Below are positions 1,116 through 42,990 of a stretch of 64,000 nucleotides of DNA, one piece after another (the first letter of the stretch is position 1; every line of letters begins with the position of its first letter). The stretch covers positions 52,080,001-52,144,000 of the forward strand of contig OZ336881.1 in NCBI GenBank assembly GCA_965287045.1, in the 5' to 3' direction. This DNA comes from Carcharhinus amblyrhynchos (lineage: Eukaryota). The notes under the pieces are model-generated. The model was given only the letters and a program-made list of their open reading frames with translations. It did not search any database and was not told where the DNA came from. Position numbers and translations under genes: made by a program.

Positions 1116-1867
1116 AAGTACTTACAATGTTCTCAAAGCAAGGTTGAGTAATACATTCAGTGCCAACTGCTACTAACATGAGAGCCCTCTGCTGGACAAC
1201 ACTATTATGGACTATGTCTGAGGCTTATCAAAATGTTTCTCAGAATGAAAATCAAGTGGAAGCGACTCAAAAGCAAATGCACTGGATACTGACAATTTGT
1301 AACCATAAATTGATTCTCTTTGAGTTTCTACACATATATAAATTATTCATTTAATTTTCAACACAAAGTATAGCCTAAAAACAAATATACATTAAACAAC
1401 ACTTTAAAGCATTTGAAGCTCCAGCATCATTTGTGATTATTCTTCTTACAGCTGAGTGTCTGTGAATATTGTGTGCTCTTTTGTAACTGAACTAAAGCCT
1501 TTAATTGACTCGAATAGTTCTTCATCATCTGGGTACTGGAGGAGAAATAAAAATCGCATTAGATAAGCATCATCCATTTACAACAACCACAAATGCTTGT
1601 ACAGAATTAGACTTTCACTTAGGAAAATTGTATGGTTTGATGCACATTGAATTCAATCGTTTAATAAAACAATTTTTTTCTATATTCAGACATTGATGGA
1701 TCATTGTGTACCATGTGTTGGATTACATAGTATAGACAGTGCAGAAACACAGCATGCAACCCAACCAGTCCATACTGCCATTTATACTCCTTTCAAGCCC
1801 CCCTTCCATCTTTCTTAAACTAAATCTATCATCACACTGGAATACTGTGGTGAGTAACTCATCTTTT

Positions 1868-3779: not shown

Positions 3780-3995
3780 CATTCCACTGTCACGACCCTG
3801 TCCAAGGGAGTCCCAAACTGAGTCTTCCATTAGGGATTTTCTGTCGTGGGTATCAATCAGCTGACTAATGCTGCGATGCAGGGAAGTCTGGGAACAGGCG
3901 TGAGTCAGCTGACTCTGGCTTGACACACACAGCACTGAGATGTTGGAATTACTGACTTGAGACCCATGTCCTGTGATTTTTGTGTCTGTTAGTCC
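3780..3995 (-). CDS. USH2A: Usherin cytoplasmic-tail exon, orthologue of human exon 71 (penultimate)
   Basis: 216 nt, gattcctaag|GGACTAACA...GGAATG|gtaatt. Translates GLTDTKITGHGSQVSNSNISVLCVSSQSQLTHACSQTSLHRSISQLIDTHDRKSLMEDSVWDSLGQGRDSGM. Confidence 0.95.
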
Positions 3996-10659: not shown

Positions 10660-10689
10660 CATGCACTGCATTCAAGACAAAGTCATGCA
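10660..10689 (-). promoter_or_regulatory. Two UGCAUG (RBFOX-type) intronic splicing elements
   Basis: Plus-strand catgca at 10660-10665 and 10684-10689 reads TGCATG in the USH2A sense, 79 and 55 nt downstream of the cassette-exon donor. Confidence 0.6.
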
Positions 10690-10743
10690 GTCATCAGGCT
10701 CCATTGAGCTGTCACACTGCAGGCCACAAACTCTTAGGCATAC

Positions 10744-10815
10744 CTCAAAACACATTGTATAACTTTTAAGTGTGACAGAACTTGAAGCATCAGAGGGTGC
10801 CGCAATAGCATCAAA
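10744..10815 (-). CDS. USH2A: Usherin 72-nt alternative cytoplasmic cassette exon (inner-ear-type 24-aa exon)
   Basis: ttcttctcttcccag|TTTGAT...TTTGAG|gtatgc, phase 0-0. Translates FDAIAAPSDASSSVTLKSYTMCFE, close to the mammalian hair-cell exon peptide (about FDSVADISDVSSNVTLKSYTMHFE, from memory), and lies in the expected intron. Confidence 0.9.
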
Positions 10816-10864
10816 CTGGGAAGAGAAGAACAGTTTAACATTACATACATGTAACACATGAGCA

Positions 10865-11200
10865 AAATCATGAGCAATCTGGACAGAGTAGATCAAGAGA
10901 AACTGTTCCCACTGGTGGAAGAAATGAGAACTAGAGGACATCAATTTAGGGCCAAAGTACCAAAGGCGACATGAAGGCAAATATCTTAACAGAGCGAATG
11001 ATTAGGATCTGGAATGTATTGTTGAGGGGTGTGCTGGAGGCTGATCCAATCATGGCTTTCAAAAGTGAATTGAATCATTAGCTGAAGAAAATAATGCAGG
11101 CTACGAGGGAAGGTCAGCGGGGTGGGACCAGCTGAGTTATTCTTACAGGCACAGACATGATGGACTGAAAGTCTTCCTTCTATATTCTAACTATTCTATA
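10865..11200 (+). mobile_element. CR1 3' fragment
   Basis: LDRVDQEKLFPLVEEMRTRGH-like remnant; begins about 50 nt from the cassette-exon acceptor. Confidence 0.7.
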
Positions 11201-11645: not shown

Positions 11646-12177
11646 CGATACGATAATAATTCCATGAGAGAGGTAGTTATAGGCATCAAACTAATGTGAC
11701 TCTAAAAATGTTGGCAACCAATTCTGTTAATTTTAGGTAATGTTTAAAATCACTTGATTCCACGGAATAGAAGGGGAGAAAAGTAAGAAATAATTTTCTC
11801 TCTCCCTCGAACCTTGCAAATTGCACATGACACCACAGTAGTGAAAAATCAATATATTGTTAACAAAATTGGAAGTCTTGATAATGCAGCTTTACTTTTC
11901 AAAAGGGCCACACTTAGCCCCGGCACTGCTTTCTCAATAAATAAAGACACTTACCCTCCGTGTGGGCCCTTGTTCCACTTGTGGAATAGATACAAAAGGA
12001 ACATGCAATGTTGTTACATTAGAATGCTGGTCACAGGCATGATCAGCACTAGAGTTTGTCTTGACCAGGAAACATCACAGAATAAATGGAGAAAGAAAGG
12101 AAAGAAAAAATTGCTGAAATTAAAGTGTGAATAGAGTTTAGGTAAGAATTCAGTCTAGGCAGGATATTTGAAAGAAT

Positions 12178-14320: not shown

Positions 14321-14550
14321 CATGAAGGATTCATTGGGCAGGTTAGTTTTCTTCTGAAGTGGAATTAATGGAGGCCTCTCTCGTTTGTATGGTTGTTTAT
14401 TTATTGCCTTTTGTAGGAGGATGGCCAAGAATATAGCCACAAACAGCAACCCAAGAACCGCCATGATTATAATGAACCATAATTCATTGTAGAATGGAGT
14501 ATTTGATTGTAATACTCCTGTTTTCTCCTCAACAACAGGTATTATTGAAC
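14321..14550 (-). CDS. USH2A: Usherin transmembrane exon, orthologue of human exon 70
   Basis: 230 nt, ttttaaag|GTTCAATA...TTCATG|gtaag. Translates GSIIPVVEEKTGVLQSNTPFYNELWFIIIMAVLGLLFVAIFLAILLQKAINKQPYKRERPPLIPLQKK..., with a hydrophobic helix and the conserved RERPPL motif. Confidence 0.96.
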
Positions 14551-17106: not shown

Positions 17107-17190
17107 CAACATCTGTTGCTGTGCTATATTTGATGATAGGGGTACTAGCACTTCCCATATCTGTTACACAGATAACTTGGAATAGAAAAG
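17107..17190 (-). CDS. USH2A: Usherin coding exon, orthologue of human exon 69
   Basis: 84 nt, cttgttgtag|CTTTTCTA...GATGTTG|gtaagt. Hand translation (T)FLFQVICVTDMGSASTPIIKYSTATDV, similar to human TFFFQVICTTDEGSVKTPLIQY (from memory). Confidence 0.94.
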
Positions 17191-18904
17191 CTACAACAAG
17201 GAACAGAACATAATTACAATTCCAGTGAAGCTCAATGTTTTACACATAGTTTTGGCAGACTCAACTGCAGAGAAAAATAACTTCCTTCATGCTGTTACAT
17301 AATAAATAGGAAGGTGTGGGTGTATGGCTACAGGAAGTGAGGCAGTTGTGCTGAAAGGTGACTTTTACCTGAGGCACAACAGAGTATTCAGGCAGGTGAT
17401 TAATAAATATATACTGTGATACACACTGCCACACATACCTTTTACCTCTAAATATAAAATTCCGCACATGAGGATAATTTTCCACCCCCATTTTTGGTGG
17501 CCGGGGAATCCTTTTCGTTTCCAGACGAGGGTGCAATCTTTCAGGGGCCATGATTGCTGGTGGGGTGAGCTCTGAAGAAGCCCACTCTGCCAGCGTGACT
17601 TAATGGACCCCGCCTCTAGGCTTCCTTTTGACTATTTGTCCAAAAGTATGGTGGAAAAAGACGGCAAAGCAGCCAGCGGGCTACACACCTCTTTTCACAT
17701 CTGGACTGACACGGTCAAAAGACGAGAAAATTCCACCCTAAGTTTCTTACAAATTATTGAAATATGAAAAATGAATGAGCCTTTAAATAGACTTCAACCT
17801 TGATAAAGGTTGCAGCAGAACAACCCGGAACATTTACCAATAAACATATAATGGAGGCAAAGGTCAAACCAATGTTCTCTTGCTTCCAATGAAAAATGAC
17901 ATCCATGCTATTAAATGACACATTGAGGTAAAATTCAGCCTCAGCATGGTCTCCCAGAGCAGGTTGTATCAGGTTAGCTGCTTAACTTTCCTTTCCATTC
18001 AAGTCAATTTCCAATCTTCAGTGTGTCAGGGAAGCAACAAGAAGCATTGGAATTCTTGACCAAATTGTTTATAAGTTAGCCAGATAATTTATAGGAAAGG
18101 GAAGGCATGGCAAGGAGAGTGACTATAAAGTGGTTCACGGTACCTAACGGTTAAAATTACCCAAGGAGCCATTTACACATAAAGGCTAAGATGTAAATAG
18201 GTTGACCAAAGTTGACTTCACAGGGGGCTTGGGCCAACTGCTGCAAAGGCACAATGGGGAAAGGTGCTGTCTAAGACCTTACAGCCATAGTGAACAGGGG
18301 ACTGGGAATTGTATAAACCCCACTGGGCTGTATGACTCACATTGAATGAATGCATAGAATATCACGTGAATCACAACTCTATTGAAGCACCTCTGCAACT
18401 TGATCAGTGTAGAAAGCTTAAATATCATTGCATTTTTTGCAATGACCATTTTGAAACATTTTGTATTGTTCCTTTGATTGCATTGAAGCACCTCAGAGCA
18501 CAACATAATTGAGGCAGAAAACTTGAATATTATTGCACCAAAACATTCTTTCAATAATATAGCAACAGGATTGCAATTCGTGAAATGCAAGAAGAAAAAT
18601 ATTTATCTTCATGCTCCTCTAGTTTCACCCAAGGATTGGTGCCAGTATGTGCACCCCCTCTCCCCCACCCAACACACTCATGAACTATTAGAGCGATTGC
18701 CAGCAAGGCTGCCAGGCCAAATTAGGCCCATGGTGACTGGTAAGATGCTCTGTAAACTCAGAAGCCTTTCAATAATGTATGGCCCTGAAGGTTGTTTTAT
18801 AGCAGTATGAATGGAAGTTCCTTCTTGAATGATAACCACAGACTAGCATCAACTGATTGAACTGTGAAGAAGACAAATCAGAGCTGGTTTTTTTTTGAAC
18901 TAAC

Positions 18905-19081
18905 TTTTATCAGATGTCCTCGGAATGTGCAATCTGCTGTCGAAGCCACTGTAAATGCGCAAGTTGTTCTCTGTCAGTATGTACTCCTTCAGCTCTCCAT
19001 TCAGCTGGAATGTTTGACTCCAGTCCACATAAATTGTTGTCAAGTTGCTGGTTACACTGAATGGTGCTTTGTACTGGGGCA
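18905..19081 (-). CDS. USH2A: Usherin coding exon, orthologue of human exon 68
   Basis: 177 nt, gctccccag|TGCCCCAG...GATAAAA|gttag. Translates (M)PQYKAPFSVTSNLTTIYVDWSQTFQLNGELKEYILTENNLRIYSGFDSRLHIPRTSDK. Confidence 0.96.
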
Positions 19082-19979
19082 CTGGGGAGCAAAGCAGGTT
19101 ACATTGCTGAAAGCAGTAACTAGATTATCTTTAAATTCCTTCTGATTAGTTAAACTTGAGAGGTTCATAATTCTAATTGTTTTTTTCTAAATTGCCCTTT
19201 TCCATTTAAGAATGTGAATTGAAAAACATACAGCAAGGTCTTTTTATATCTATTAGAGGTACACAATAAAGTGGTATGCCTTCTAAATAAGAGAGGTATA
19301 ATTAAGTGAGGTGCGTGAGTATCTATAAAAGATGTGCAGTCTACATCAACTGCTATGATGGTTATAACATGAAGCCAGTAAATAATATGGATAGAGAGAA
19401 GTTATGAGTAAGGGTTATCAATTGGATATAACCCATAATGGGTGCAGGGATCGTGACACACTTAGGCTTTGTCTAATGGAAGTGATGCAGTTTGCACATC
19501 AACCTCATCCTGCCAACTCAACTCCATTATTGCAGTGCACAGCCTACCTACTTCCGACTGGCTGCAAGTTTAACAGGGGGCCCAGGTGCATGTGAAGCTA
19601 GCATTAGTTAAAGTTTGCCTGTACTTCTTGAATTCACCCTGCAATTTTTAAAGGGGAGATCAATTTAGACTACAGCAGCTGTTTAAATTATTTCTGCAAT
19701 GTTTTGCACAAGGGAGAGGACCAATAGAGCAACAGACAATAGAGAGGGTTTCCAGGTTCTCTGATGCAGTGATGCAGGTCTGACTCCAGAAAGAGAAATG
19801 TCATTATTTGACATGGGGGTCACAAGGCTGTCCAGGTATTCACTATGAAAAGGATGGGAGCACATAGCCACAAAGGTCATGTGGCAATTCTGGCTCCAAA
19901 GATCTGGCTGCAGTGCTGCAGAGCCGCAGAAACTTCAATTAGCTCACGAGTGGTCAAAATTAGCAAATGTATCTTTAAT

Positions 19980-20285
19980 GGGTGGCACTGTGGCACAGTG
20001 GCTAGCACTGCTGCCTCACAGTGCCAGGAACCTGGGTTTGATTCCTGCTTTGGGTCACTGTCTCTGCGGAACCTGCATGTTCTCCTCGTGTCTGCATGGG
20101 AGTCCTCTGGGTGCTCCGTTTTCCTCCCACAGTCCAAAAGATGTGCTGGTTAGGTGCATTGGCCATGCTAAACTCTCTCTGTGTACCCTTACAGGTGCTG
20201 GAGTGTGGCAACTAGGGAATTTTCACAGTAACTTCTTGGCAGAGTTAATGTAAGCCTACTTGTGACAATAATAAATAAACTTTAA
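19980..20285 (+). mobile_element. V-SINE, second tail type, full length
   Basis: Head gggtggcactgtggcacagtggctagcactgctgcc; tail gcctacttgtgacaataataaataaacttt. Confidence 0.9.
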
Positions 20286-21002
20286 GCCTTACACTTTCTT
20301 AAAATTAAAAAAAATACATCCGTGTGGCTAATTTCTAAACTTCTTGAAACTGGATGATGACCTTTTAAAATGAAGCATGTGTGGCTACAACCTTCGAACA
20401 ATAGATGCTAATCTGGCTGTATCAGGAAATTTGCACCTCACTATCTCTGAAGAGATACTAATGACCCCTGTGGGCTGCAGACACCAAATCCAAAGGGAAC
20501 CTTTGCATTTCAGGAAGCAGGCTGGCCAACTGGCAACTACTAATCTGCTAGGACAAAGCACACTGCAGCCCTCTAACAAATTCTTAATGGCTGGAAAATT
20601 ATCCGCCTCTGCAACCCAAACAGAGGGATATATCATAACATTCAAGGGTATGGGACAAGTACAAGAAAACGGAATAAGTGCACCTTAAGTGGTAGTTATT
20701 GTCAGTGCAGACTGGATGGGCTGAAGGGCCTTTTCGGCGCTGTATGACTCTATGACTTACCCAAGCTGAAGTGGAGAGATGGGAGCCTTGTGATATGGTC
20801 CCTTAGCTGGTGGAACCTGTAATATTTCCTTGTGTAGCTGCAAAGATCAGCCGTCCATGTTTCCATCTACCAAGCAAGAGCACAGAAAAGGGACTCTGAC
20901 CAGGTTTGAATGCCTGGTCTCGTTTACACTTATTCCACAAGTTCTCCTGTACCATCACCTACAAGACTGTCTCATCTCTACGTGCCTATTTCCAGCAGCA
21001 CA

Positions 21003-22285
21003 TTGGCACAGTGGTCAGCACTACTGCCTCACAGCACCAGGGACCTGGGTTCGATTCCCAGCTTGGGTCACTGTCTGTGCGGAGTCTGCACATTCTCCCT
21101 GTGTCTGCATGGGTTTCCTCTGGATACTCTGGTTTCCTCTCACAGTCCAAAAGATGTGCTCGTTAGGTGTATTGGCCATGCTAAGTTCTCCCTTACAAGT
21201 GGTGTGCCTCAGGGATCTGTGTTGGGGCCACTGCTGTTTGTGATTTTTATTAATGATCTGGATGAGGGTATAGTTGGGTGGATCAGTAAATTTGCTGATG
21301 ACACCAAAGTCGGAGGTGTGGTAGATAGTGAGGAAGGGTGTCATAGTTTGCAGGAAGACTTAGACAGGTTGCAGAGCTGGGCCGAGAGGTGGCGGATGGA
21401 GTTTAATGCAGAGAAATGTGAGGTAATTCACTTTGGTAGGAATAACAGATGTGTTGAGTATAGGGCTAACGGGAAGACTTTGAATAGTGTGGAGGAGCAG
21501 AGGGATCTAGGTGTATGTGTACATAGATCCCTGAAAATTGGGAATCAAGTAGATAAGGTTGTTAAGAAGGCATACAGTGTCTTGGCGTTTATTGGTAGGG
21601 GGATTGAATTTAGGAGTCGTAGCGTTATGTTGCAACTGTACACAACTCTGGTGCGGCCGCACTTGGAGTATTGTGTGCAGTTCTGGTCCCCACATTACAG
21701 GAAGGATGTGGAGGCTTTGGAGAGGGTGCAGAGGAGGTTTACCAGGATGTTGCCTGGTATGGAGGGGAGATCCTATGAGGAGAGGCTGAGGGATTTGGGG
21801 TTGTTTTCGCTGGAAAGAAGGCGGCTAAGAGGGGATCTGATTGAAACATATAAGATGATTAGAGGTTTAGATAGGGTGGATAGTGATAGCCTTTTTCCTC
21901 TGATGGAAAAATCTAGCACGAGGGGGCATGGCTTTAAACTAAGGGGGGGTAGTTATAGGACAGATGTCAGGGGTAGGTTCTTTACCCAGAGGGTGGTGAG
22001 GGATTGGAATGCCCTGCCTGCTGCAGTTGTAAATGCGCCTAGTCTGGGGGCGTTTAAGAGGTCTGTAGATAGGTTTATGGACGAAAAGGGATTGTTTTAG
22101 GTTAGTGGGTCATTGTTGTTGTTTTTTTTTTAACTGGTCGGCGCAACATCGTGGGCCGAAGGGCCTGTTCTGCGCTGTAATGTTCTATGTTCTTACTGTA
22201 CCTGAACAGGTGCTGGTGTGAGGCGACTAGGGGACTTTCACAGTAACTTCATTGCAATGTTAATGTAAGCTTACTTGTGACACTG
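21003..22285 (+). mobile_element. V-SINE (second tail type) split by a CR1 insertion
   Basis: Head and core at 21003-21196; the tail resumes at 22192 (cttactgtacctgaacagg...). Confidence 0.88.
21197..22191 (+). mobile_element. Young 5'-truncated CR1 LINE with an uninterrupted RT C-terminal frame
   Basis: SGVPQGSVLGPLLFVIFINDL...KFADDTK...RPHLEYCVQFWSP, open to the stop at 22100; tail tgttctatgtt; CTTAC duplicated at 21192-21196 and 22192-22196. Confidence 0.95.
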
Positions 22286-23317
22286 ATTAATAAACCTTTA
22301 AAAAAAAGTGAATCATCCAGCATCAGCTCAGCTAGCTGACGTCTGTAAAGGAATACACACAGTATTGGACTTCGATTTTGGACTCTGGACTCATGTGAAA
22401 ATGTTTTTTCTCTGTGGTCTTTTCCTTGTAAATCTTTCTTTCTCTGTCCCCTTTTACAGTATGAATGCCCAGAGAGCTACACAACGATTCCCCCCTCAGC
22501 TAGCATCTTGAGTGTGCGCAAATAATCTAACAGGAAAACACTCTGGTTTCCCCACCGCCATAAGCACTTACAGCCATTTCAGTTGAATTGCAACTATATG
22601 CCAACAGTTACAAAGTCTTTATGCCACTTGCCTCTGAAACAATTTTTGTCTTACTTCTATTTAAAAAATAATTTTTAATATGAGATAAAATATTCTCCAT
22701 GAACATTCTGGGATGCTGTTTCAGGGACAATTACAGTAGTTGTTTTGAGAGCGTCTCTCAGCCCCTTGGAACGTGGTGGAGCTTCTGCCTGCCCCAAACC
22801 ACAGAGCCCCTGACACTTGATCAGTGCACACGACCAAGGTCATTACCGCCATTTCTCTGGGCAATGTAGCTGGTACTTCCGACTCTGCTCGGTGACATGC
22901 TTCAGGTGGGATTAGCTACAGTACAATGTGGCCGGCAACCCTGGCTGAAAAGAAAATACTTTAAATATTTACAAAAAAGAAGAAATTCAATCTAGCACTT
23001 TGCCTGGTGAGTGTATCACTCTGCGATTAAATATTAATCACCGTACCTATTCAGGTTAAACCACCAATTCACTGCTTCAACATCTCTCAACACTAGGAAC
23101 ACACGAAAGTTCAGAGAACCAGCTGTGCTTTGGGGTGAATGAGGATAATATTCATTGTGTGATAATAATAAACTGTCCGTGTTTGAAGAAACTTCCAGTG
23201 GGAAATGTGCAAGTGGCATTATGTGGCAAGTAGCCAGAGGAACAGATTCATGTATAATTTCCCCCATTCAGCTACTGCAGTTACATTGGGGTGCAGAGAA
23301 ATATCCACCATATATAG

Positions 23318-23465
23318 TAAGAACAAGGAAAATTACAGCAATGGAACAGGCCCTTTGGCCGTCCAAGCCTGCACCGACCATACTGCCCGTCTGAACTAAA
23401 ATCCCCTATCTTTCCGGGGACCGTATCTCTCTATTCCCATGTATTTGTCAAGATGCCTCTTAAAA
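23318..23465 (-). mobile_element. CR1 3' tail fragment
   Basis: aagaacaaggaaaattacagcaatggaacaggccctttggcc is the reverse of a CR1 tail. Confidence 0.7.
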
Positions 23466-24194
23466 TTCCCTGTGCTACAAAATATAATTTCATTCATTTA
23501 TTGAAACGTCAGACACAAATAATCACATTTTTTTGGAAAGGGAGTACCTATAAAGGACAGAAATCTACATTTCCCTAGGTGCACCAGCATTTAAACTAGG
23601 CCCTGGTTGCCAATCCAAGAAATTAGTTCAATTTTATCTGAAAACCTTACATATGCCCCTTTAAGAGTGTTTTCAAGAGATCGACATTTAAAAAAGAAAG
23701 CAAAATCTGATGTGACACCAGCATCCTTTTGTTAGATTAAACTAGTCATTCATGTAGACAGGTCTCAGGCAGTATAACAAGCTACAGATGGTTTGATAGA
23801 GAGAAGGCTTTGAGTGCTAGCTGGAGCACAAGATTTGATATTTTTGGCTTTATTGGAATAAAATGTAACTGAATCAGCAAAATTTAGAACTGTGGCCTCA
23901 TCCTTAATAGAAGGCATAGCACAATTCTCATTTGAACCCAATCTATATCAAAAGTCAGTTCAACATCATTATATGTCAATCATCAAGTACAAATTTCCAA
24001 ACTTTCACAATAAAATTCTGATATATGTGCATCGGCAATATAAGAAAATGTGCACTCATCCTGTTGCAACATGTATTATTTATAAACTGCTTGATATGTG
24101 TATCACTATCACATCTATGGGGGGGGGGGGGGGGGGTGGGGATCAAGTGTAACAGAACATTATTATTCCACTTGACCAGTCGAATTATACTTAC

Positions 24195-24412
24195 TCTCTT
24201 TCAGTGTAGTAATGGCAATCCACTCGGAGGCTGTGCTGCCCACTGAGTTGTAGCTTATTATTTTAAGGTTATAACTTGTGTAAGGCTGGAGGTCTGTCAA
24301 GTTGAAGCTCTGGCCTTTTCCGGTGTATACAACTTTAATGGGTTCAGCAATACAAGACTGCGCTATTGGTTGCATTGGCTGAGGACAGGCGATGAGCATC
24401 TGGAGCTCATAG
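24195..24412 (-). CDS. USH2A: Usherin coding exon, orthologue of human exon 67 (FN3)
   Basis: 218 nt, gtttctag|CTATGAG...AAAGAGA|gtaag. Translates YELQMLIACPQPMQPIAQSCIAEPIKVVYTGKGQSFNLTDLQPYTSYNLKIISYNSVGSTASEWIAITTLKE; phases match both neighbours. Confidence 0.95.
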
Positions 24413-24985
24413 CTAGAAACAGAAAGGAGTTCAATAAACTGAAATGAAATTCAGAGACTTCGAGATATCGACATAGTGAAGTTGTCCTAAATATTGTAGC
24501 TTAAGAAAACATGTAAAGCAAGGTAAAAATTCAAATTCGATCTTTCGCAATATTAGTAGATGAATATTTAATACCTTCTATGTTATTCATTGGATGGAAT
24601 TGATCTATTTAATTAAATATTGGACTGAGGAACGCCATACAGATGGCTTAATCTATTATGTCTGAATAAAAAGTATATTCTGGGCTGCAACTCAAGTGTA
24701 AGATTACAGTTATATTTTCTCTCTGTGTGTATCACCATGAGGATATTTTTGGGGAGATGGTGGAGGGGGAGGGGAAATCATATAAACTATAGAGTTGCAA
24801 GCTTCTTTTCCTCAGTGTGTTACATCCAAGAAATTTTTAAATAATTCAAACTCTTCTCAAATGGTGAGTTTAAATCATCCAGTGTTGTCACGTAAGAAAT
24901 TTGAAGTTACATTCAGATTATGTTAGGTGCAGCCCAGTGAGCACTGTTTCCTAAATATCTTTAACGCAGTTGGTGTAATTCTTAC

Positions 24986-25224
24986 CTTTGAATGATACCA
25001 TTAGGTGACTGTGGAGAGCTCCATTGCAAATTAGCACTCATTGATTTTACACTCTGAGCCAGCGGAGGAGGCTGATTGGCAGGAGCTGATGAGCGAGTAA
25101 CAAGCCTTGCCACAGGTCCTTTGCTGCAACACTTAAAACAAGTGCATGCCTCTACGCCAATGGAATAGTTAGTAAAGGGCTCTAGACCATGAATGGTTTG
25201 CTGTGTTAATGTTCCTTCAGAGAG
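24986..25224 (-). CDS. USH2A: Usherin coding exon, orthologue of human exon 66 (FN3)
   Basis: 239 nt, gctgacag|CTCTCTGAA...ATTCAAAG|gtaag; absent from the ORF track, translated by hand: LSEGTLTQQTIHGLEPFTNYSIGVEACTCFKCCSKGPVARLVTRSSAPANQPPPLAQSVKSMSANLQWSSPQSPNGIIQ. Confidence 0.96.
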
Positions 25225-26379
25225 CTGTCAGCAAAGCACAAAGCAGTGATGTTTATATACTTTGATACTAAATCATCTTTTCCAAAACATATAGAGGAGA
25301 CCAGACTTAAGTGACAAGCTATCTATTTTTAATGATGTAGATTGGTTGATTTTACTTAACGTATCAGGTACACACAGAATATCGTCGGGATGTCATTGTC
25401 TCTCATTTCAAAATCATCCATGGACACAAGCTGAGTTTTGCTAGGGACCATATCTCTCAGCTGGTTGTTATAACGGGGATGCTCTAATATTAAGCAATGA
25501 TGCTAAGAAAAGCCAAGGTGATCTATTTCATAGTTCAGCAATTCCTGGTACATTTGTGCTCCAGACCAACATGAATTCCATCCTTTAAATACAAGTCAGG
25601 CTGTTGGAGATGGCAGCAGTTTGAGATACATGAATAGAACATAAGCTTTATATTCACTATCTCTAATTTCCACACAGCATGTTGTACAGTCATGTGTGGC
25701 TGGTCAGTAGATGGTAATTTATTCAATGGCATAACGCACCATCTTGTGTTGCTGATGGATAAATATGAACAAGCGCAGCTGGAGCGTTGGGATAACACTC
25801 TAGGCAAAATGACCCCTCCCCAGTGAAAGAGGGAAAAGGGACTGAGCTAGGCATTTACAAGGTCAAATCTTTGTTTTGTGTAAACAATCAGTAGGTAAGC
25901 ATTCAAACTACCTTCTGGCGCAATATCAATGCACAATGAATAGAATTGTAATGGAATACACCTATGCATAAAATTCACTTTTTCAGGGCCAGACAGGTTT
26001 TTCAGCTAGAATCGTCACTTCAGTACACCTAACTGTCATAGCCCCATTTTTATCATCTGTTCTGAAGAAAGTGGTTTCTGTGGAATGATTTCTGTGCAGA
26101 TTCCTTCTGCTGAAGTGCAGTTTATGGAGGAGCCTGGTATCACTGACAGTAACTTCTGGATTCCTGCCTTTAACTACACATGTGCAGATGCCAGACGTGG
26201 CTGTCGGCTTTACACTGTATTAACAGTGAGCGCTGACAGTCTTACTCTTACCAGTACAGCAAAAACTAATCATTGAATTGAGAAATATAGTGTAAATCAA
26301 ATAATGTTCAGTGTTGCTCTGTCAGCCCGTGGCAGAGGAATAAAGCATCTCATTGATGGTTAAATAGTTAGAATGAGGT

Positions 26380-27190
26380 GGGTGTTCAATTTGGTACTTC
26401 CCAGAGGAAACTTGTGCACCGCCCCTGGGAGGGACTGGTGGTCCAGCTCATCACTTTGTTCACTACCAGGATGACCTGGCAACAGGTGCAGAAAAGACAT
26501 TACACTGAAAAGGGACTGACAAACAAACGGTCCTCAATCTCACCACATATTTCAAGAACGGTCCAAAGATTACTGTTGCGAGGTTTTTGCCTGTTCTACA
26601 TGATATACTGGTGGGGTTGTTCGCCGTGGGCGCAAACCCTGTTATGGCTGGAAACTCGTGTGACAGGCCCATGACTGGACCTGTGCCAGGGAATCTCAGA
26701 ATGAGAGCTTCCCTGCGCCCCTCTCCCACCAGCAATGTAATCAGGTTCATGCCAAAAAAGGACATGAATCTGGTTTGAATAAATTTAAACTAATTAACAT
26801 CTGATTAAACAGCTTAATGACGTACCTTCCAGGAATGTCAAATGTTCCCACAAACTGGTGTGATGTAATGCCAGCGGGCATCACTACTATTCTCCAGCAG
26901 TTGAAATGGGGGCATGGAGGCCAGTGTCACCCCCATGTGGTCAGAGACACAGTTGGGCAGTACCCCAGCACTGCCAATCTTCCCTTTAAAAATTGGCAGC
27001 CGATCTCTGCAGAGGCTGGATTTCCAGTGTCTTTAGGCCTAGTCCTTCGGGTATGATGGTGTAAAACATGCCTCCCTGCCTTCTTTTTGAGAAAGTTTCT
27101 GGAGAAGAACCTGCCACTTTCTCTGAGGAGAACAATGCCGTTTTTCTTTTAGAACCTGACATTTTGCAATTTCTTGAGAAATTTCTTCCT
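26380..27190 (-). mobile_element. Possible Harbinger element end with a decayed Myb/SANT-like ORF remnant
   Basis: Weak resemblance of the RF...GRREAL stretch to the N-terminus of Harbinger Myb-like proteins, next to TIR-like sequence near 27190; by-eye similarity only. Confidence 0.3.
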
Positions 27191-27191
27191 A

Positions 27192-27522
27192 TCATAGAAT
27201 CATATAAACATAACGTCTCCACAGTACAGGAGGAGGCCATTCGGCCTATCAAGTTTGCACCGACCACAATTCCACCTGGGCCCTATTCCTGTAACTCCAC
27301 ATATTTATCCTACTAATCCCCCTCACACTAGTGTCAATTTAGCATGGCCAATCAACCTAACCCGCATATCTTTGGAGTGTGGGAGGAAACTGGAGCACTC
27401 GGAGGAAACCCATGCAGACATGGGGAGAACACGCAAACTCCACACAAACAGTGTCCCGAGGCTGGAATTGAACCCAAGTCCCTGGCGCTATGAGGCAGCA
27501 GTGTTAACCATTGTGCTACCGT
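27192..27522 (-). mobile_element. V-SINE/HE1-type SINE
   Basis: Head, V core and CR1-type tail (tcatagaatcat on the plus strand). Confidence 0.88.
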
Positions 27523-27908
27523 AATATGTTTGTTAATTCTCAAGCTTATCCATATCTCTGGAGGGCGCACTTTTCTGAATCTAATTTAGAATGACCACAT
27601 CTTTCAACGTCATAATATTTAGAACAATTCAATTGCCTGACACCCCATGATTTAACAACAATCAGGTTGACAATGTTTTTAAAATTATTTGTGAAATTTA
27701 TTTGAAAATTATTGAGCATGCAATAAAGGTACAATTCCATTGACTTGAGCAAGGAGCTCCAATAGGAGATCTAAAGCAAGCTGTTGGTGCGATGGTGGAA
27801 CTGCGCATCCAGATTTTTCTCTGGGAATCCTCTGGGAAATGTTATCTAGCTTCCTGAGGATCATGTTATGATCCTAATAAAGACTGCTAACTTGTAAAAA
27901 GAGACTTT

Positions 27909-29762
27909 GGGGACGATCTTACCAAAAACATTCCAAGTGCCAAATGAGCGTAAAACCGGGAGAGAATCATGTACATTTTTTGGGTGAGCTGTCAGATACG
28001 ATCTTATGCCACTTAGTGCAAAGAAAAGGCAAAGGGTGATTTATGCCAGTGGAGGGAGTGGACAGGGTCTATTCTCTGTGGGAAGCCAGCTGCTGACAGC
28101 TAGAGGGTACCATTGCTCATGCGCCAATCTTGCAGTGCACTAACTGTTCATAAGAGTGCACAGTTAATACACTGGGAGATATCTCACTCTCCCCCCACTT
28201 TCACCAAATCACATTCCCACCCCTGATCGTGCCCTCACCTGGTCACCCCTACAATTGCGGCACTCCCCTGCCAATCGTTGCTGCTGTCCTCCCCTCTCCA
28301 GCCGTTCACTGCCCCATTCCCCCCAGCTGATCGCCACCCCCATCCGTGTTCCCCCACCAGTTGCTACCCCATCTCCTCCTGACCGATCACTGCCCCAGTG
28401 ATGCCCGATTGCAGAGTGCACAGCCAGTCACCTCCCCGAGGCCTCATCCCCTAAACTATAGAAAATATATGTCCCTTAACTTCCTAAAATGACCAAAAGC
28501 CCCATGCCACATTTATAACTTGCACTGTAACCTCAGCAGAATTGTAATGTTTGCAGGAACCAAGTTCAAAGTTGCTGTCAATGCCTAATAGGCTTACTTC
28601 TCTCTGTTTCACTGAGTGCCTGTCAAAAGTTGTTTCCCACAGTCTTGAGAATTCCCAAACCAAAGCCAACGCTGATGACTCCTTTTCTTGACCATGCCAG
28701 GGCAAATCCGCCAGTGTCCTTAAATTTCCATCGATCATGTCTCTTCAATGAGAAAGTAAGCTTTCGTATGCATTCTGCCAGCTATTTAACAGAAACCAGC
28801 CTTTCCACTGCTCTTCAGTACAGCTGCTGTATTCCTGTCTCACCCTTGGGGACTCACTTTCTCTTTCTAATTCTCGATTAGGGCTTTCTGGGCTGGATTT
28901 TGAGCCCGCAGTCTCCATCTGTGAGATCACTGGTGGGGGCTCAAGTTCCAGCAAAACCTGGAAATCGTCAGTGAGATTACAATCTCCAATTTTTGCCACC
29001 CCACGCTGGTGATGTAATGGACACAAACCTTATTTCAATACATTTTAATATATTTAAATCTACTTAAACACCCGACTTGCCAGATTCTCCCCACTCATGA
29101 GATTTTCATACAGGCTCACACATACATGAACCTGTCAAGGGACTCCCCCACCTCCTCCCACTCCCCCCCCACCCCCCGACCCCCAGGAATGCAAAGGTCA
29201 GACAGGGAAATGGCCAGGCAGTTTTATGGTAAAAAAGCAAATTACTACGGATGCTGGAATCTGAAACCAAAAGAGAAAATACTGGAAAATCTCAGCAGGT
29301 CTGGTAGCATCTGTAAAGAGAGAAAAGAGCTGATGTTTTGAGTCCAGATGACCCTTTGTCAATGCCTCCTGGCTCTGCCCACTGGCACTGGTTGGCAGCG
29401 TCAGACAGTGTGTTCTAAGGGGAGACTCACATGTGGGGATGCATCTATTTGTGGTGGAGGGGTGAGCAGACACAGAGAGCAATGAGGACACTGGCAATGA
29501 TCGGGGGGGGAGAGTCAGAATGTGGGAGTGTGGGATGGGGAGGCAACAGATAACCCCCAATGTTGGAGCTAGCTTTCTAAAGGGCCCCTGGCTGAAAGAG
29601 TCCTCGCCCTGCCAGAGTGATGGTGAAAACCTCACCCACTCTTTTTTTTCAGTTAAAGGGATAAAATCTGGAGCGAAAACTCGCCAGTGGAGCTGTAGGG
29701 TTCCACATCCATTTTCTCACCATAACTGATACTTTGTCAAATTCTTGTAAGATCACCGCCCC
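27909..29762. mobile_element. Composite non-autonomous TIR element(s) with a nested Penelope terminus (29232-29364)
   Basis: GGGGACGATCTTAC at 27909 and GTAAGATCACCGCCCC near 29747-29762 are inverted termini; C-rich internal repeats. Confidence 0.45.
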
Positions 29763-29779
29763 CCTTTTCAATTGTGGCA

Positions 29780-29960
29780 CCCCCTGCCGATCTTTGCTGC
29801 CGTCCTCATCCTCCTGCCCGATCGTCGCACCCATTCCCCCCCAGCCGATCGCCACTACCAACCCTGTCCCCTCTCCCCCACCAGTTGCCACCCTGTCCGT
29901 TCCCCCCCACCAGTTGCCACCCTGTCCGCTCCCGAATGATCGCCACCCTGCCACCCCTCT
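29780..29960. repeat. GC-rich imperfect tandem repeat (about 22-25 bp unit, ccccaccagttgccaccctgtccg)
   Basis: Unit repeated several times; related units at 28210-28400. Confidence 0.7.
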
Positions 29961-30330
29961 GAATCAAACTGCTTGGAAATTTGTAGTTGGGCAATTGGAA
30001 GACCAGGTGCTCTTTCCCTTGTCTTCAGATGTGAAAACTGGCACACTGGGTTCAATAGGAATTGACCTGGATCCCTGGTCCACATAGTAAACATGTCACC
30101 ACGGCCTATCACCAGGCCGAACTAGCAGGAAATCACCTGACCTTCTCCATTCTCCATTTTACCTTCAATTAACAGAGGCAATTTAAAACATAACCATTTT
30201 ATAAAACTTTACATTTGTACCAAGTTGGAAATGTTAATCATACCAGTGGTGTTGTTGGCTGGTACGTGATGAAAAGAAAAGAAGTAAGGAAAAAGAGAAA
30301 CAAATTACAATACAGTGCAGAATAAAATAT

Positions 30331-30552
30331 CAAAGCAAATTACTGTGGATGCTGGAAGCTGAAACAGAAACAAAAAGTGCTGGAAAACCTCAGCAGTTGT
30401 GACAGCTTCTGTGGGGAGAGGATAGAGCCAACATTTCGAATCTAGGTGAACCTTTGTCAGAGCTTTGTCAGCACTCTGATAAAAGGTCACCTAGACTCGA
30501 AACATTGGCTCTATTCTCTCCCACAGATGATGTCAGACCTGCTGAGATTTTC
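30331..30552. mobile_element. Penelope-like fold-back insertion (family B) with a 13-bp TSD
   Basis: cagaataaaatat at 30318-30330 and 30553-30565; internal arms at about 30380-30462 and 30474-30555 are inverted. Confidence 0.8.
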
Positions 30553-31671
30553 CAGAATAAAATATGTTTAACTTAAAAGAAATAATACAAGGAATATTAC
30601 ACGAAAAGTTTGAGAAAATCTACTCCAGCTCGTGACCCAGTACCGGACATTTTCTAATGACACAATCAGATGACATTCCACGTATAGCCCTAAACGTCAG
30701 AAAACAGGGCTGAGAGGCACAGCCCTGTGTACAATTTTCTGGCCTTCAATGAGGCTTGCATCACTGAGAAACCAGGGCCTTGTGTTCCATGAAGGACTGA
30801 ATGGTTTGTTTTTTGTGCTGTAACATTCCATAACTACAGCCTCACCAAACAGTGAAAATATGCCATCACTGTAGAACATGATATGGATTTGATTTACGGC
30901 AGTGATGTTGCATGTCACTAATTAACAGACCTGCTCACGTTTCAAAAATTCAGGCAGACACCTTTTGCCAGTTAATTCACATCTGGAATTGAACAGCTGA
31001 AGCAGTTGGCTATTGCCTTCTGATGTCAACTGCTTTCACTATTTATTGCTTTTTGTCCTGATAATACCGATTGAATACAGTTCTTTGTGCACTGACAGAT
31101 GGCTTAGCCAAAATATAATAAAACATATTGCAACTGTAATTTCCTTGCAGAATCATCACACTATTTACCACGGGCTCAGAAGTGACCTCTTGTGTGCAAT
31201 AATGGCCTCAGACTTCAACTGGTGACATTAGAGTATAATGATTGCTACTGCAGTAACCTTGAGGGAAGTATCACTGCATCACAACAAACCATAAATTGTC
31301 TTTTAATGAATAAGAAGCATGTCATGTTGGTGAGCAGCGAATGGAAACAGATTGTTTGTGTGTCCTGACCAGGGAAACTATTGGTAACAGGCATTGACTG
31401 AAACTCATGGTGACACAATTTATTAACTGACACGTGCTTAATAATGAAATCTGAAGATGACTCTGGTCACTGCTTGTATGAACACTGAGGAAAAAGCACC
31501 TCTATCAAGAAAGGAACACGGTATTTATGTTTTTATAAAATAAAACATTTGGAGGAGTAGTTGTTTGGGAAACATATTAATAAAAATAATTTTCCAAAGC
31601 TGGTTCCAAACACCGAAGGACCAAATATCCCTGCACGACTTACAAAATTCACCCGCTCTTAACTACTTATT

Positions 31672-32013
31672 TTACTCATTCATGGCATGTCAATATCGCT
31701 GGCTAGGCCAGCATTTATTACTCATTCTCGAGGGCATTTAACAGTCAACCACATCGCTGTGGCTCTAGAGTGACATGTAGGCCAGACCAGGCAAGAGCAG
31801 CAGATTTCCTTCCCTAAAGGACATTAGCAAAGCAGCTGGGTTTTTACAACAATTGGCAGTGGTTTCATGGCCATCATTAGACTTTTAATTCCAGATTTTT
31901 ATTGAATTCAAATTTCACCATCTGCTATGGTGGGGTTCGAATTCGGGTGCCTGGAGGAGTACCTGGGTCCCTGGATTAGTACTTCAGCGACATTATTACT
32001 GCACCACCACTTT
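31672..32013 (-). mobile_element. tRNA-derived SINE (third family, RTEX-like tail)
   Basis: Core tagactttt aattccagatttttattgaattcaaatttcaccatctg shared with the copies at 36781, 44170, 57700 and 61990. Confidence 0.82.
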
Positions 32014-32799
32014 CTCTAAAACCCTTTACCCCTAAAACAAACAATTTTCATCTACGAGCTTTGATATCATTGAGCAATATTTGTCAGTGATCATAGGCAT
32101 GGGAAGTGTGTTTCTTCCAAACAATGCCAAACTGCTTTTTACTATACTGTTATATTATGGCATTTGGACTACTATTGTCATTGAATTCAATCTTTCTACT
32201 CAGAATACAGAAAAAATAAGGTCCATATTACTATTTGCCTTTGCAATTGATTGGCTTTGAATCAGATTTCATGCCAACATCAGAATCTATCCAGCTTTTG
32301 GTCTACCGATTCATCCAACTATCCATCAAAAATGTTTGCTTTTAGCACTGACTCCAATTTCCATTTTAATTTTCTTGCACCCAGTGGTGCACTAATGCTG
32401 ACTTTTGTTTTGTTCCGTAGCTAGTAATTCCCAGGATAGGTTCTAGTTTGTTGTCAGGGGCTTATATCTTGAGGGGCGCTGCTCCACATCAAGCAGAGTG
32501 GGGGGCGGGGGGAGGCAGGGGTGCAGGTTAGTGTGTTTAATACACTAACTGCAAGTGGATAGGGGAGAAAGGAGTTTCTATCACACTCTCTCCCTAATCC
32601 ACAAAGGACAACATACAAAAATAGTATCTCTCCTTTCTTCCTGCTCTTTGAATTTGTTTTTAAGTCAGGCTACCCACTCACAGTTGTGTGGCTTGGGCAG
32701 CATATTATCTGGGTCAATTGGTTTGATATCAAACCCAACTGAGCCTTGATTAATTATTTAAATATAGTGAATGGGCTGCTGATTTTGGACTATCCCCAG

Positions 32800-33675
32800 T
32801 GTTATGGGGTGAGTTTGTGGGTGGGTGTGAAGATGGTGGGGTGGGCACCTGCCCTATTTGACATGCTCATCAAAAGCATGCCTGATGAGCATGTCAAATG
32901 TAGCCTTGTATGCACATAATGGATATGACTAGACCCTATTAACCTTCCATTGTACTAAGATAGCTGCCTTCATCTAAATCTGACTGGGTGATTCTAAAGA
33001 TATCAAATGACAAACGGGATGATTAGAATCAACATATACACTATGCTTTGTTTGGGAGAAAGGACTTCGAACTTATGGAAGCCATATGATGAAGGAACCA
33101 TTTTGTCGTTGGTTTTTAAAACCAGCAAGAATCCATTGTAGAAGGGAGTTCCATCAAGATCCATTGAACTAGCTGCAAGATACCCAAGTAGTCAAGATAA
33201 TAAACAGCATTATCTTGAAGGTGGAAGATCCTATCAGAGAGAGACGGACTCTCAAAACTGTTTCAGTTAAGTTCACTCGACAACTCACCTCCCAGAAATT
33301 CAACTACAAGAAACCTCACAGCTTACTAAGAATCCTCCATTTTACCAGATCTTCACTTCAAAAAAAAGCACTAATTTCATTCAAGGAACTATAAGGCAAC
33401 CATGAAAAGATGAGATATTCATAAGCAGTATATTACCTTCATCTGTACCCAGCCTGTGTATGTGTGAGAGTATGTGATGATTGAATCACTGCATCAAATT
33501 TTGGGGTAAATGTGTAATAATAAATAACCTTCTTTATGTTTAAACTCACAAATGCTTTCTGCTGGGATGATTTAATTGGGACACTCACTCAGAGTAAGAA
33601 AAAACTCACCACTTACATATAAAAAAATACTGCCCACAACCAGTAAAAGAAAATATGTGAATTCTGTCCATGACA
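32800..33675 (+). mobile_element. Possible solo LTR
   Basis: TGTTATGG...CCATGACA imperfect inverted ends and AATAAA near 33519; no clear TSD. Confidence 0.3.
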
Positions 33676-34094
33676 CATTCTAAACTCGTTCTCCCTTTCA
33701 CTACCTCTTCCCCTGTAAAGGCAACATATAAATGGAGATTGTCGATCAATTACTATAATCTAAAGCAACGTGACAGTAGAAGCAGTTCCAATGAATTTGG
33801 ATTAGGGACAATAGTATTGTATTCAGGTCCATTTTAAAATAGTACATTATCTAAACCATCCAAATATTAGGCTCCGTGGCCCAGCATTGTTCTCCCTACC
33901 TGATCTTGGGGATCGTGCACTGGATGTGATGGGGCAATGTACTGGCTCTGTGACTGACAAAAATCTGACAGGTTTCAGAGAAACATGCTAACTTGAAGAT
34001 TATCTGCAAAAAGATTAATTACACTGTCACCTATACAATGAAATGCACTTAAACGGGAACTTGTCTTATGCATCAGCTTTGTCTTGATGATGAT

Positions 34095-34815
34095 CATAGG
34101 ATCGATAGTTGCTATTTGGCCCATCGAGCTTTATCCACCATTGAGAAAGATCATGGTTGATCTGATTGTGGCCTTAACACCACTTTCCTGCCTGCCCCTG
34201 ATAACTCTCAAATTCCTTTTCAATTAAAAATCTAACTAACTCAGCCTCCAATATATTAAATGACCCAACACCCACTGCTCTCTGTGGAAGAGAATTAAAA
34301 AGACTAACAATTTTCTGAGAAGAAATTCCTCCTCGGTTCCATATTCAAAGGGAATCCCCGTATTTTTAAACTATGCCCCCTTGTTCTAGATTCCTTCATG
34401 ACAAAAAACAGCTCCCTCAGAACCTTATAGCCGGAATTCTCTGGCTGTGCACGCAGGCGGGATTCTTTGGTCCTGCCGGCAGCAGGACTGAAGGGGTGAT
34501 GTGTGATGACATCAGTGGGAATTCCCATTGATAAGGGTGGGAACAGACTGCTACCAAATAACGCGCCACCTCCCACCAACGGAAACAACGGCTGGGAAGC
34601 CAAAGAATCTCACTCTAATGTTTCAAGAAGATCACCTCTCATCTTTCTCAACTCTAATGAGTATAGGCGTAACTTGCTCAATCTTTCCCCATAAGTCAAC
34701 CCTTCATTCCAGGGATCAGCTGAGTGAACCTTCTCTGAACCGTTTCCAATGCAAATTTCTCCTCCTTAAGTCCAGAAGACAAAACCACACATAGCACTTC
34801 AGTTGTGGTCTCATT
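34095..34815 (-). mobile_element. CR1 3' fragment interrupted by a MITE (about 34430-34610)
   Basis: ESRTRGHSLKIRG...RRNFFS and RPQLKCYVW remnants flank a GCCGGAATTCTC...AGAATCTCAC element. Confidence 0.75.
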
Positions 34816-35492
34816 GGTCGCCATCAGTCAATGGGAATCAGCAGCTCACTGGAAGATGGAGTGAAATGTTGGGGAGAAGCAACTGCTAGGGATGAAGGGT
34901 AGTTACTGACACTAAGTTAAATCACAAGGAGGAAGATTCAGGAAGGTCTCACACGAGGCTGGGAGGAGAAGCAGAGAAGCCCAAGGCATGGGAGTTCTAC
35001 ACTTTTCTTGTGAGGCACAGAGGAGGGCTTTTACTTTGGAACCCACAAGGAAAGTCAAAAAAAAAGCAAAGCAATCTTTTTTTTTTGTTCCCCTCTTGAA
35101 CTCTTTTTTCTGCCAACCAAGGTAACAACAAAACATTCCCATACATGCCTGATGATATCCTTGGAATCTGGTTGGGTTCTTTGAAGAAAGATCCAGCTAA
35201 TTTTCAGTGCTGGGGAAAGCAGGTTATTGTCAAAACCCAGAAAGAGCTCATGGGCATATGTCCTGCGTTCAATCTTAACAATCTTAAAAGCCTAGCTTTT
35301 ACCAGGGATGGAGGGATAAACTGTTCCTGAAACGACCACCGAGAAGGGTGAGAAATGCTGTACTCTCATGGACAGGATGATGAGGCATTCTGCAAATATA
35401 GAGTCTGGATGAAATTAAGATAAATGCGCACTTAATTTGCTTTCTCTTCCTGTCAATGCAGGATCAATAAAGGAAACAGTGTACGTGCTTAC

Positions 35493-35705
35493 CAGTGTGT
35501 CATCACTTCGGGTCCAACTGCGAGCAAAGAGCCTGTACAAGCTGATAATTCCATTTGGTTGGGCAGGTGGAGTGATGTTTACTGCAGCAGAGGTTGCATG
35601 CACTGAAAGAAAGCTGGGTGGATACAAGCCTTCAGGAGGAGCTTGTCCGGTTCTTGAGCGAGTCCATGCACTTGATGAGTTTCCTGCAGAATTCACTGAG
35701 CTTAC
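35493..35705 (-). CDS. USH2A: Usherin coding exon, orthologue of human exon 65 (FN3)
   Basis: 213 nt, phase 0-0, ttaactgcag|GTAAGCTCA...GACACACTG|gtaag. Translates VSSVNSAGNSSSAWTRSRTGQAPPEGLYPPSF...PNGIISLYRLFARSWTRSDDTL. Confidence 0.95.
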
Positions 35706-36094
35706 CTGCAGTTAAGAATCACAACTTAAAAAGAAAGCACCACATAATGAATGGTATTGTCCTAGCTTGAGTAAACTATCTGCTTTATAACACGAAGAAA
35801 GGCTAATGAAGACCAACAGGGAAAAATTGGACCTTGTTTCACCTATTTTTTTTTGGCACATTGATGTTGAAAACTGTACCGGTGCCATTGCCTGCTCTCA
35901 CCTAGGACTGGAAAACTTAATTAACTTTGCTGTCAATCTCCAATCTTCTCTCACTTTCAAATGGCCCATCTCCAATATTTCCTCAAATTCGCTATCTCCA
36001 TTTTGGGGATAGGCTGTCCACTAATATTCAGTATAAGCCCTAGTGCTGTGAGGCAGCAGTGTTAATGACTGTGCCACAATGATGCCCCTTGTCT

Positions 36095-36355
36095 TGTTTT
36101 CATTTTCCACCCCACCAGAGTCCAATTCAAAGGATCATCTTCCCCCTTTTGTATCACCTCCAACATGATGCTACCATCGAGCACATTTCATCTTCCCCAA
36201 CCAGCATTCCAAAGGGAATATTCCCTCTGCGACACTCTGGTTCAATCCTCAATCACTCCCAACAACCTTCTCAGCAATCATAGGAGGCGTAATAACAATG
36301 TCCTTTTACCTCCTCCCTCCTAACTATCCAAGGCCCCAAACACTCCTTCCCAGTG
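36095..36355 (+). mobile_element. Penelope-like element ORF fragment
   Basis: IQRIIF...HLQHDATIEHI...LRDTLV...CPFTSSLLTIQGPKHSF remnants, typical of the linker between the PLE RT and GIY-YIG domains. Confidence 0.7.
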
Positions 36356-36621
36356 GAGGGGGAGATTGTCGGGCCAGTGTTTGACTGTTTCGGCTTGAAT
36401 AACATTGCTGTAAAATATCTTTTAACCACTTTTTGATGTTGTAGGTATTTTTAATGCCGTTATAATTGGGCACAGTTGCTGTTGTCACTGATGTTCTGCT
36501 GGGTTGACCATTTGGGTTGGAGGATGAGGAATAGCAACACTGGCAAGGGAGGGTACACAGAGCTCTCTTGTGCAGTTACAGAAGAGGGGTGCAAGACATA
36601 GTTCAGGAGACCCAAAGCATT

Positions 36622-36743
36622 GGGCGGGATTTTACGACCTTGCTCGAGCGAGATCAGAAATTCCTGCCCAAGCTCAATGGATATTTCTGTTGTCTGCCTT
36701 TGCTCGCTCCAACTCTGTGGCAGGTGGGGTGGTAGAATTCCAG
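36622..36743. mobile_element. Short MITE
   Basis: gggcgggattttacgaccttgctcg...ggtagaattcc; same family as 3222-3333. Confidence 0.65.
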
Positions 36744-36780
36744 TGATCATGTGACTGCTGGAGCTTTTCTTAAAAATTGT

Positions 36781-37155
36781 TTCATGGAATGCAGGCGTAG
36801 TAGGCAAGGTTTGCTATCCATCCCTAATTGCCCTTGAATTGAGTGGCTTGCTCCATCGTTTCAGAGGCCAGTTACAAGTAAACAATGTTGTTGCGGGTCT
36901 GGAGTCACATTTAGGCCAGGCCAGATGAGGATGGCAGATTTCCTTTAAGAAAGGGCATTAGTGAATTAGATGGGTTTTGCAGCAAAAAAGACAATGATAG
37001 TTGTCATGGTCAGCATCACTGAGACTAGTTTTATAATTCCAGATTTATTAATTGAATTCAAATTTCAACAGCTGCCATGGAGTAGTTTGAATACATATCC
37101 TCAGAGCATTGGGATTACTAGTCCAGTGACGTAACCATTATGCCATCATTTCTCC
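36781..37155 (-). mobile_element. SINE, third family
   Basis: Collinear with 44170-44560. Confidence 0.8.
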
Positions 37156-37329
37156 TTCAGGTAACTGACTGCCACACCTGAACCACACACCGAGAAGCAG
37201 TGCATCAGGTGCCTTCTCTTCAGGAATGAAGCAATCATAGAATTGTGTCACCTGTTGCAAAACCAACTGAAGGCCCACGTGAGGCCATGGGCAGTCCAGG
37301 TGGAAGAGAGAAAGTCATGAACTCATGCA

Positions 37330-42864: not shown

Positions 42865-42990
42865 GGGCAGAATTTCCCATCTCGCCCGCAGTGGGGATTG
42901 TAGCAGGCGGGACACAGACCATACAAAGATCTGTCAATCTCGGGTAGGATTTTGTGGCATTGTGGCGAGCATGGCTGGAAAATCTCACCC
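42865..42990. mobile_element. 126-bp MITE with a 3-bp TSD (ATG)
   Basis: atg|GGGCAGAATTT...AAAATCTCACCC|atg. Confidence 0.8.

Follow-up and report, generated by a model that had tools for sequence, protein, structure and literature searches.

USH2A is a deaf-blindness gene, and the locus analysed here raises the question whether a shark keeps, between the exon for the transmembrane (TM) helix and the exon for the cytoplasmic tail of usherin, the cassette exon that is spliced in the mammalian cochlea, and in which cells such a cassette would be used. The cochlea-specific exon 71 of mammals (Adato et al. 2005) is cited in the accessible parts of PMC8417766, PMC8268283, PMC3207874 and PMC8232728; the exon is described as 24 aa long (PMC8417766), and the last base of the human exon is c.15298-1153 (PMC3207874). 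A sequence-only reading of the window, meaning the whole stretch of 64,000 nucleotides analysed here, had proposed a shark counterpart of this exon.

Exons of USH2A in the window

Protein matches show that the window covers the 3' part of USH2A from a shark close to Mustelus, a ground shark. Nine colinear exons match named usherins in a frame open to a DTQL stop, and the features of the long isoform are present: FN3 repeats, a single TM helix, and a cytoplasmic tail with a PDZ-binding end. The C-terminal end of usherin is named a PDZ-binding motif in the accessible part of PMC8417766. The constitutive exons are the following.

17107..57430, minus strand: six upstream constitutive exons for the distal ectodomain, mostly FN3 repeats (57430-57109, 35705-35493, 25224-24986, 24412-24195, 19081-18905, 17190-17107); protein matches, open frame
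14321..14550, minus strand: constitutive exon of 230 nt for the transmembrane helix and a juxtamembrane cytoplasmic segment; protein matches, open frame
3780..3995, minus strand: constitutive cytoplasmic tail exon, 216 nt, 72 aa; protein matches
1446..1535, minus strand: last coding exon, in which the PDZ-binding motif DTQL precedes the stop; protein matches, open frame

Exon 57430-57109 gives a weak Pfam fn3 match. All 7 proteins retrieved with the TM exon are elasmobranch usherins. Among the matches listed, with residues summed over the matched exons, the closest named protein is the usherin of Mustelus asterias (608/657 matched residues), followed by those of Scyliorhinus (563/694), Cetorhinus (543/676), Heterodontus (515/666) and Callorhinchus (424/622).

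Cassette exons between the TM and tail exons

Two cassettes, called exon B and exon A, are placed in the intron that separates the TM exon from the tail exon.

10744..10815, minus strand: cassette exon B, 72 nt, 24 aa, near-certain orthologue of the mammalian cochlear USH2A exon 71; splice sites, translation, peptide identities
11955..12059, minus strand: cassette exon A, 105 nt, 35 aa, phase 0/0; AG and GTAAGT sites, protein inserts

Coordinates, strand, length and the 24-residue peptide of exon B, as given in the sequence-only reading, were all reproduced from the window DNA. The exon (10815..10744, minus strand) is preceded by a pyrimidine tract and CAG and followed by GTATGC. It is bounded by AG and GT and is in phase 0 at both ends, as are the end of the TM exon (14321) and the start of the tail exon (3995). 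The chain of nine constitutive exons is open to the C-terminal DTQL stop both with and without exon B (619 and 595 residues), as expected of the frame-preserving 72-nt exon that had been described. The surrounding stop-to-stop ORF measures 109 codons (11001..10675), and usherin matches are confined to the 24 codons of the exon; the sequence-only reading had called the host ORF otherwise meaningless.

The splice sites had been called strong, which holds for the acceptor and not for the donor. A crude matrix, for which the 9 acceptors and 8 donors of the window itself served as training set, gives the acceptor 7.9, inside the constitutive range (3.5-12.8), and the donor 3.9, a moderate value under all 8 constitutive donors (5.0-10.1). 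The 10.3-kb intron holds 427 in-frame AG..GT candidates with lengths of 30-300 nt, among which exon B comes 7th, and the top-scoring rival candidate of the same intron, 4944-4912, lies inside a repeat. Splice signals alone would not pick out exon B; homology does. A repeat origin of exon B was rejected, repeat-derived sequence being absent within 300 nt.

Homology and age of exon B

Exon B was sought in 127 usherins, which include the best 120 of 142 matches to the Cetorhinus tail (named, non-human) and the 7 TM-exon matches. Scoring covered the residues that lie between those encoded by the TM and tail exons, and the entries of Rhincodon and Danionella are unscorable; taxonomic groups are those that we assume from the species names. 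All counts that follow are counts among these listed matches.

The peptide was found in 32/127 usherins, in five of six groups: it occurs in sharks, rays, bowfin, teleosts, python, birds and a rodent. Among the 12 chondrichthyans listed, 5 have exon B, 6 lack it and 1 is unclear; five of those lacking it have no insert at all, and one has exon A instead. Identities to the window peptide are 24/24 in Mustelus and Pristiophorus, 23/24 in Stegostoma and Hypanus, and 20/24 in Narcine. One of the two holosteans listed carries the exon (Amia, 14/24 identical), as do 18 of the 57 teleosts, in a 23-aa form with 10-12 identities. Seven of the 27 sauropsid entries have it (Falco and Ara, 18/24 each; four chicken entries, 15/24; python, 14/24), and chicken usherins are evenly divided, four with and four without. 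The single case among the 28 mammals listed is Apodemus speciosus (17/24), and the sole amphibian usherin lacks the peptide (0/1). The teleost form usually has a cysteine at position 7; the shark cysteine is at position 22.

The window was also scored in six frames, as 127,858 windows. The Apodemus peptide scores 81 at 10815 and 30 at the next best site, so that the proposed homology to the mammalian 24-aa exon is upheld; each of four bony-vertebrate peptides (Apodemus, Falco, Amia, python) has its best score at 10815, with margins of 38-51 points. A profile built from 20 bony-vertebrate peptides reports one domain in the window, at 10815-10744 (i-E 4.7e-9).

Comparison of ten distinct 24-aa versions of exon B shows no variation at F1, S11, T15, L16, K17 and E24, and the overall pattern is F...S.[TI]LK[SR][YF]...E. 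Identity among sharks and rays is higher in exon B than in the flanking constitutive exons. Stegostoma matches four amniote proteins at 15-18/24 residues in exon B and 33-38/72 in the tail exon; the figures for teleosts are 10-12/24 and 37-43/72, respectively. Constraint on the peptide is no weaker than that on the constitutive tail, which argues for a real job.

Presence in 32/127 usherins that include those of sharks and bony vertebrates indicates that exon B predates the split between the two lineages, in line with the age first suggested for it. This dates a splice variant of a deafness gene to the common ancestor of jawed vertebrates. An origin before vertebrates is unsupported: a full-length usherin-like protein of 32% identity carries no signal of the exon B motif, scoring as shuffled sequences do (338/1000 as high). 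No lamprey or hagfish protein was found among the best 120 of 142 matches.

The expectation that annotation would miss exon B is not borne out. The database usherins of Mustelus asterias, Pristiophorus japonicus, Stegostoma tigrinum, Hypanus sabinus and Narcine bancroftii already include the same peptide at the same junction, although they are known as annotations only; since these make up 5/12 of the chondrichthyan proteins among the matches listed, annotation does not generally miss the exon.

Relation to exon 71 of mammals

The human junction c.15298 is in phase 0, with 103 of 5202 residues downstream; the residues that follow the insert number 103 in Apodemus and 101 in the shark. The Apodemus insert agrees with the published exon 71 in position, phase, length and last base, and the two are equated because position and length match. 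That exon B is the orthologue of this mammalian exon is, by the same kind of comparison, close to certain. Both are 24 aa long and in frame, reside in the same TM/tail intron in phase 0, and end in G, and 17/24 residues are shared with the rodent insert. The two differ in their distance upstream of the tail exon, which is 6748 nt for exon B and about 1150 nt for the human exon, and the shark intron features exon A 1139 nt upstream of exon B, exon A being seen in 0/28 mammals among the matches listed.

Exon 71 is described as 'well conserved in vertebrates' in the accessible part of PMC3207874, which cites Adato 2005, and its occurrence in a shark is for this reason less surprising. Little is added to what was known, since conservation across vertebrates had been reported and exon B is part of several annotations from sharks and rays. 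The result supports continued screening of human exon 71 in hearing-loss cases. A long-read study of human retina (PMC12047242) reports 72 USH2A exons and no natural skipping, and 'exon 71' is not mentioned in its accessible part; this fits, and is consistent with, absence of exon 71 from the main retinal form. In the accessible part of bioRxiv 10.64898/2026.03.09.710525 'exon 71' denotes the site of a zebrafish mutant allele, and the accessible part of PMC3017948 yielded no exon 71 content.

Candidate regulatory motifs and the use of exon B

Short motifs of two types are found downstream of the exon B donor.

10713..10717, minus strand: GTGTG, candidate RBM24/RBM38-type enhancer, 27 nt downstream of the exon B donor; motif match
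10660..10689, minus strand: two TGCATG, RBFOX-type candidates, at +55 and +79 downstream of exon B; motif match

We take TGCATG to be an RBFOX-type element that follows a downstream position rule; RBFOX-type factors are active in neurons and muscle generally. The motifs are short, were sought post hoc and belong to one genome, and their background is as follows: GTGTG occurs within the first 50 nt in 4.6% of background windows, and at least two TGCATG in 0.3% of 6390 overlapping 100-nt windows. Neither motif was seen within 100 nt of any constitutive donor (0/8). The window as a whole is not enriched in TGCATG (52 found, 60 expected).

A parallel is provided by CDH23, another Usher adhesion protein, in which RBM24 promotes inclusion of the inner-ear exon 68 via UGUGUG at +30 (PMC7397384, accessible part); RBM24 is expressed in hair cells (PMC10018040, accessible part). 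According to the former source, exon 68 is, like exon B, an in-frame cassette of the cytoplasmic tail placed ahead of a PDZ-binding end; it has a weak donor and GUGUG about 30 nt downstream, exon B a moderate donor and the candidate GTGTG at +27. The genes differ, and RBM24 control and dimerisation, shown for CDH23, are inferred for usherin. Ush2a was not found as an RBM24 target in the literature searched. Exon B might be regulated by RBM24 or RBFOX.

We favour, with a probability of roughly 0.6, the view that exon B is the shark orthologue of the cochlear usherin cassette, skipped by default and included by activators, most likely in hair cells. The exon would have been kept through the whole of jawed-vertebrate history. 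Its moderate donor would leave it skipped in the default state; cells having the right splicing activators, most likely hair cells, would include it in frame. The activators would be of the RBM24 type, acting via GUGUG at +27, and possibly of the RBFOX type, acting via UGCAUG at +55 and +79. Inclusion would add 24 residues to a disordered cytoplasmic tail, about 30 residues from the membrane, leaving the C-terminal PDZ-binding motif unaltered, and the peptide would serve for self-association or for binding within the stereocilia ankle-link complex. The parts of this view differ in strength: true alternative splicing of exon B in sharks is highly probable, and its enrichment in shark hair cells is reasonably probable. 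The sequence-only reading had also suggested that lateral-line or electroreceptor cells might use the exon.

A true orthologue could also be broadly included in sharks and fishes, for example in neural tissue, retina, pineal and skin, restriction to the inner ear being a later feature of mammals or amniotes; we hold this to be unlikely, though clearly the best of the alternatives. Exon B is commoner in the fish proteins listed (5/12 chondrichthyan, 18/57 teleost) than in the mammalian ones (1/28), which counts against ear restriction and may reflect wider tissue use in fishes, and the two downstream TGCATG point to RBFOX-type factors, with their neuronal and muscular activity. However, fish skin, head and whole-larva RNA contains lateral-line hair cells; projected annotation can add exon B, and the frequency of gene models is not tissue evidence; and the exon is absent from 6/12 of the chondrichthyan proteins listed. 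In the literature, usherin, ush2a, whirlin and rbm24 gave no match in one supplement of a paddlefish lateral-line paper (PMC5429088), 'usher' and 'ush2' were not found in the main text of a catshark sensory paper (PMC11979771), each source being accessible in part, and no mention of ush2a was found in the shark and electroreceptor literature searched.

Exon B might instead be a silent relic in this shark, recognisable and no longer spliced in, as its donor, below all eight constitutive donors by the crude matrix, would suggest. Identity of 24/24 to Mustelus and to the distant Pristiophorus and of 23/24 to a ray, in excess of that of the flanking constitutive exons, stands against this, as do the intact frame and splice sites, and we consider it very improbable. 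A chance AG...GT stretch, for which 427 candidates give room, or convergent similarity to the mammalian peptide is refuted by the usherin insert survey and by the six-frame scoring, in which all four bony-vertebrate peptides choose 10815, in a stretch free of repeat-derived sequence for 300 nt.

The exon B peptide and the usherin tail

The insert is placed about 30 residues inside the membrane and leaves the PDZ-binding end intact. An AlphaFold2 monomer model (19-sequence alignment) features the TM helix and one short helix only, at low confidence (mean pLDDT 53.8), and pLDDT is <50 over most of exon B; the peptide is thus predicted to reside in a disordered tail. Pfam has no family for exon A, exon B or the tail. 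A search of solved structures with the Stegostoma tail gave 4 matches (E 0.77-2.4), all generic TM helices, and no template is available for the intracellular region of usherin according to the accessible part of PMC7317166. In CDH23 exon 68 mediates dimerisation of the tail (PMC9986246, accessible part).

No function assigned to the exon B peptide was found in the literature searched. Because a conserved peptide of fixed length lies in a disordered tail, exon B may add a short linear binding motif, a proposal to which we give even odds; the invariance of F...S.[TI]LK[SR][YF]...E favours a motif over a spacer. The alignment marks the residues to mutate: F1, S11, T15-L16-K17, Y19 and E24.

Exon A and its relatives

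Exon A ranks 2nd of the 427 in-frame candidates in the intron, and the frame is kept by exon A alone as by A and B together. Usherin X2 of Scyliorhinus has a 35-aa insert at the TM/tail junction that matches 12059-11955 (24/34 identical, E 2e-10). By shuffling, homology of exon A to the insert of Alligator isoform J is clear (11/28 identical, 0/2000 shuffles as high), and that to the python insert probable (12/2000 shuffles as high). The order in python usherin is A then B, as in the window.

Among the matches listed, inserts other than B mark the TM/tail junction in 34/127 usherins: those of catshark, gar, axolotl, alligator, python and 29 teleosts, including the zebrafish database protein. 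They were seen in 0/28 mammalian usherins; the sequences provide weak evidence for loss of exon A in mammals, because exon B itself turns up in just 1/28 of those listed. Of the teleosts listed, 47/57 carry either insert and 0/57 carry both (one model per cluster). Identity of the teleost 22-aa inserts with shark exon A was not significant (170 and 247 of 2000 shuffles), and a profile of the teleost inserts does not find 12059-11955 in the window. The gar and axolotl inserts were likewise not significant in pairwise shuffles; a four-sequence profile ranked exon A first, with an i-E of just 0.089. Exon A as a duplicate of exon B was rejected (score 18, 557/2000 shuffles as high). One TGCATG lies inside exon A, and a GTGTG is found at +42. 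No paper on exon A or on shark ush2a splicing was found in a literature search thin on subscription papers.

We suggest, as a speculative scheme that as a whole is rather unlikely, that the tail of the ancestral jawed-vertebrate usherin had two cassettes, A of about 35 aa and B of 24 aa, allowing four in-frame tails. Hair cells of the ear and lateral line, electroreceptors and photoreceptors might choose different tails. Since TGCATG is found downstream of B and inside A, one activator, for example RBFOX, might favour B and repress A. Mammals would have lost A, and teleosts would have shortened both cassettes and used them as alternatives. Were this true, sharks would be the place to test how the tails of the Usher ankle-link protein are tuned across sensory cell types; were exon A ancestral and switched by tissue, tails not found in mammals may occur in fish models of Usher 2A. 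Exon A is the fresher lead of the two.

Other features of the locus

Ahead of the tail exon, the usherin of Mustelus contains six additional residues, 5/6 of which match the translated acceptor region 4013-3996 (minus strand), implying an alternative upstream acceptor in Mustelus. The window has no AG there, and the next AG upstream runs into a stop.

Four elasmobranch usherin entries (P0004, P0006, P0007, P0008) are short (195-220 aa) and start at or beside the same Met in exon 17190-17107; they are either annotation fragments or a TM-plus-tail isoform made from an internal start.

In the intron before the TM exon, the repeat-free stretch 15549-15476 (minus strand) matches, at 19/25 residues, a 25-aa juxtamembrane insert with two cysteines that is present in Pristiophorus only (1/127 usherins among the matches listed). 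An AG acceptor of fair quality is present, with two TGCATG some 90 nt upstream, but there is no in-frame donor where the match ends. The stretch could hold a microexon of 9 nt (15549-15541) that keeps the frame. Podarcis usherin has a 3-aa insert at the same junction.

Unclassified interspersed repeats reside at 4729-4949, 6185-6993, 8588-8874, 11325-11643, 12175-12485 and 15985-16922; they have up to 11 overlapping self-matches in the window, and flank exon A on both sides.
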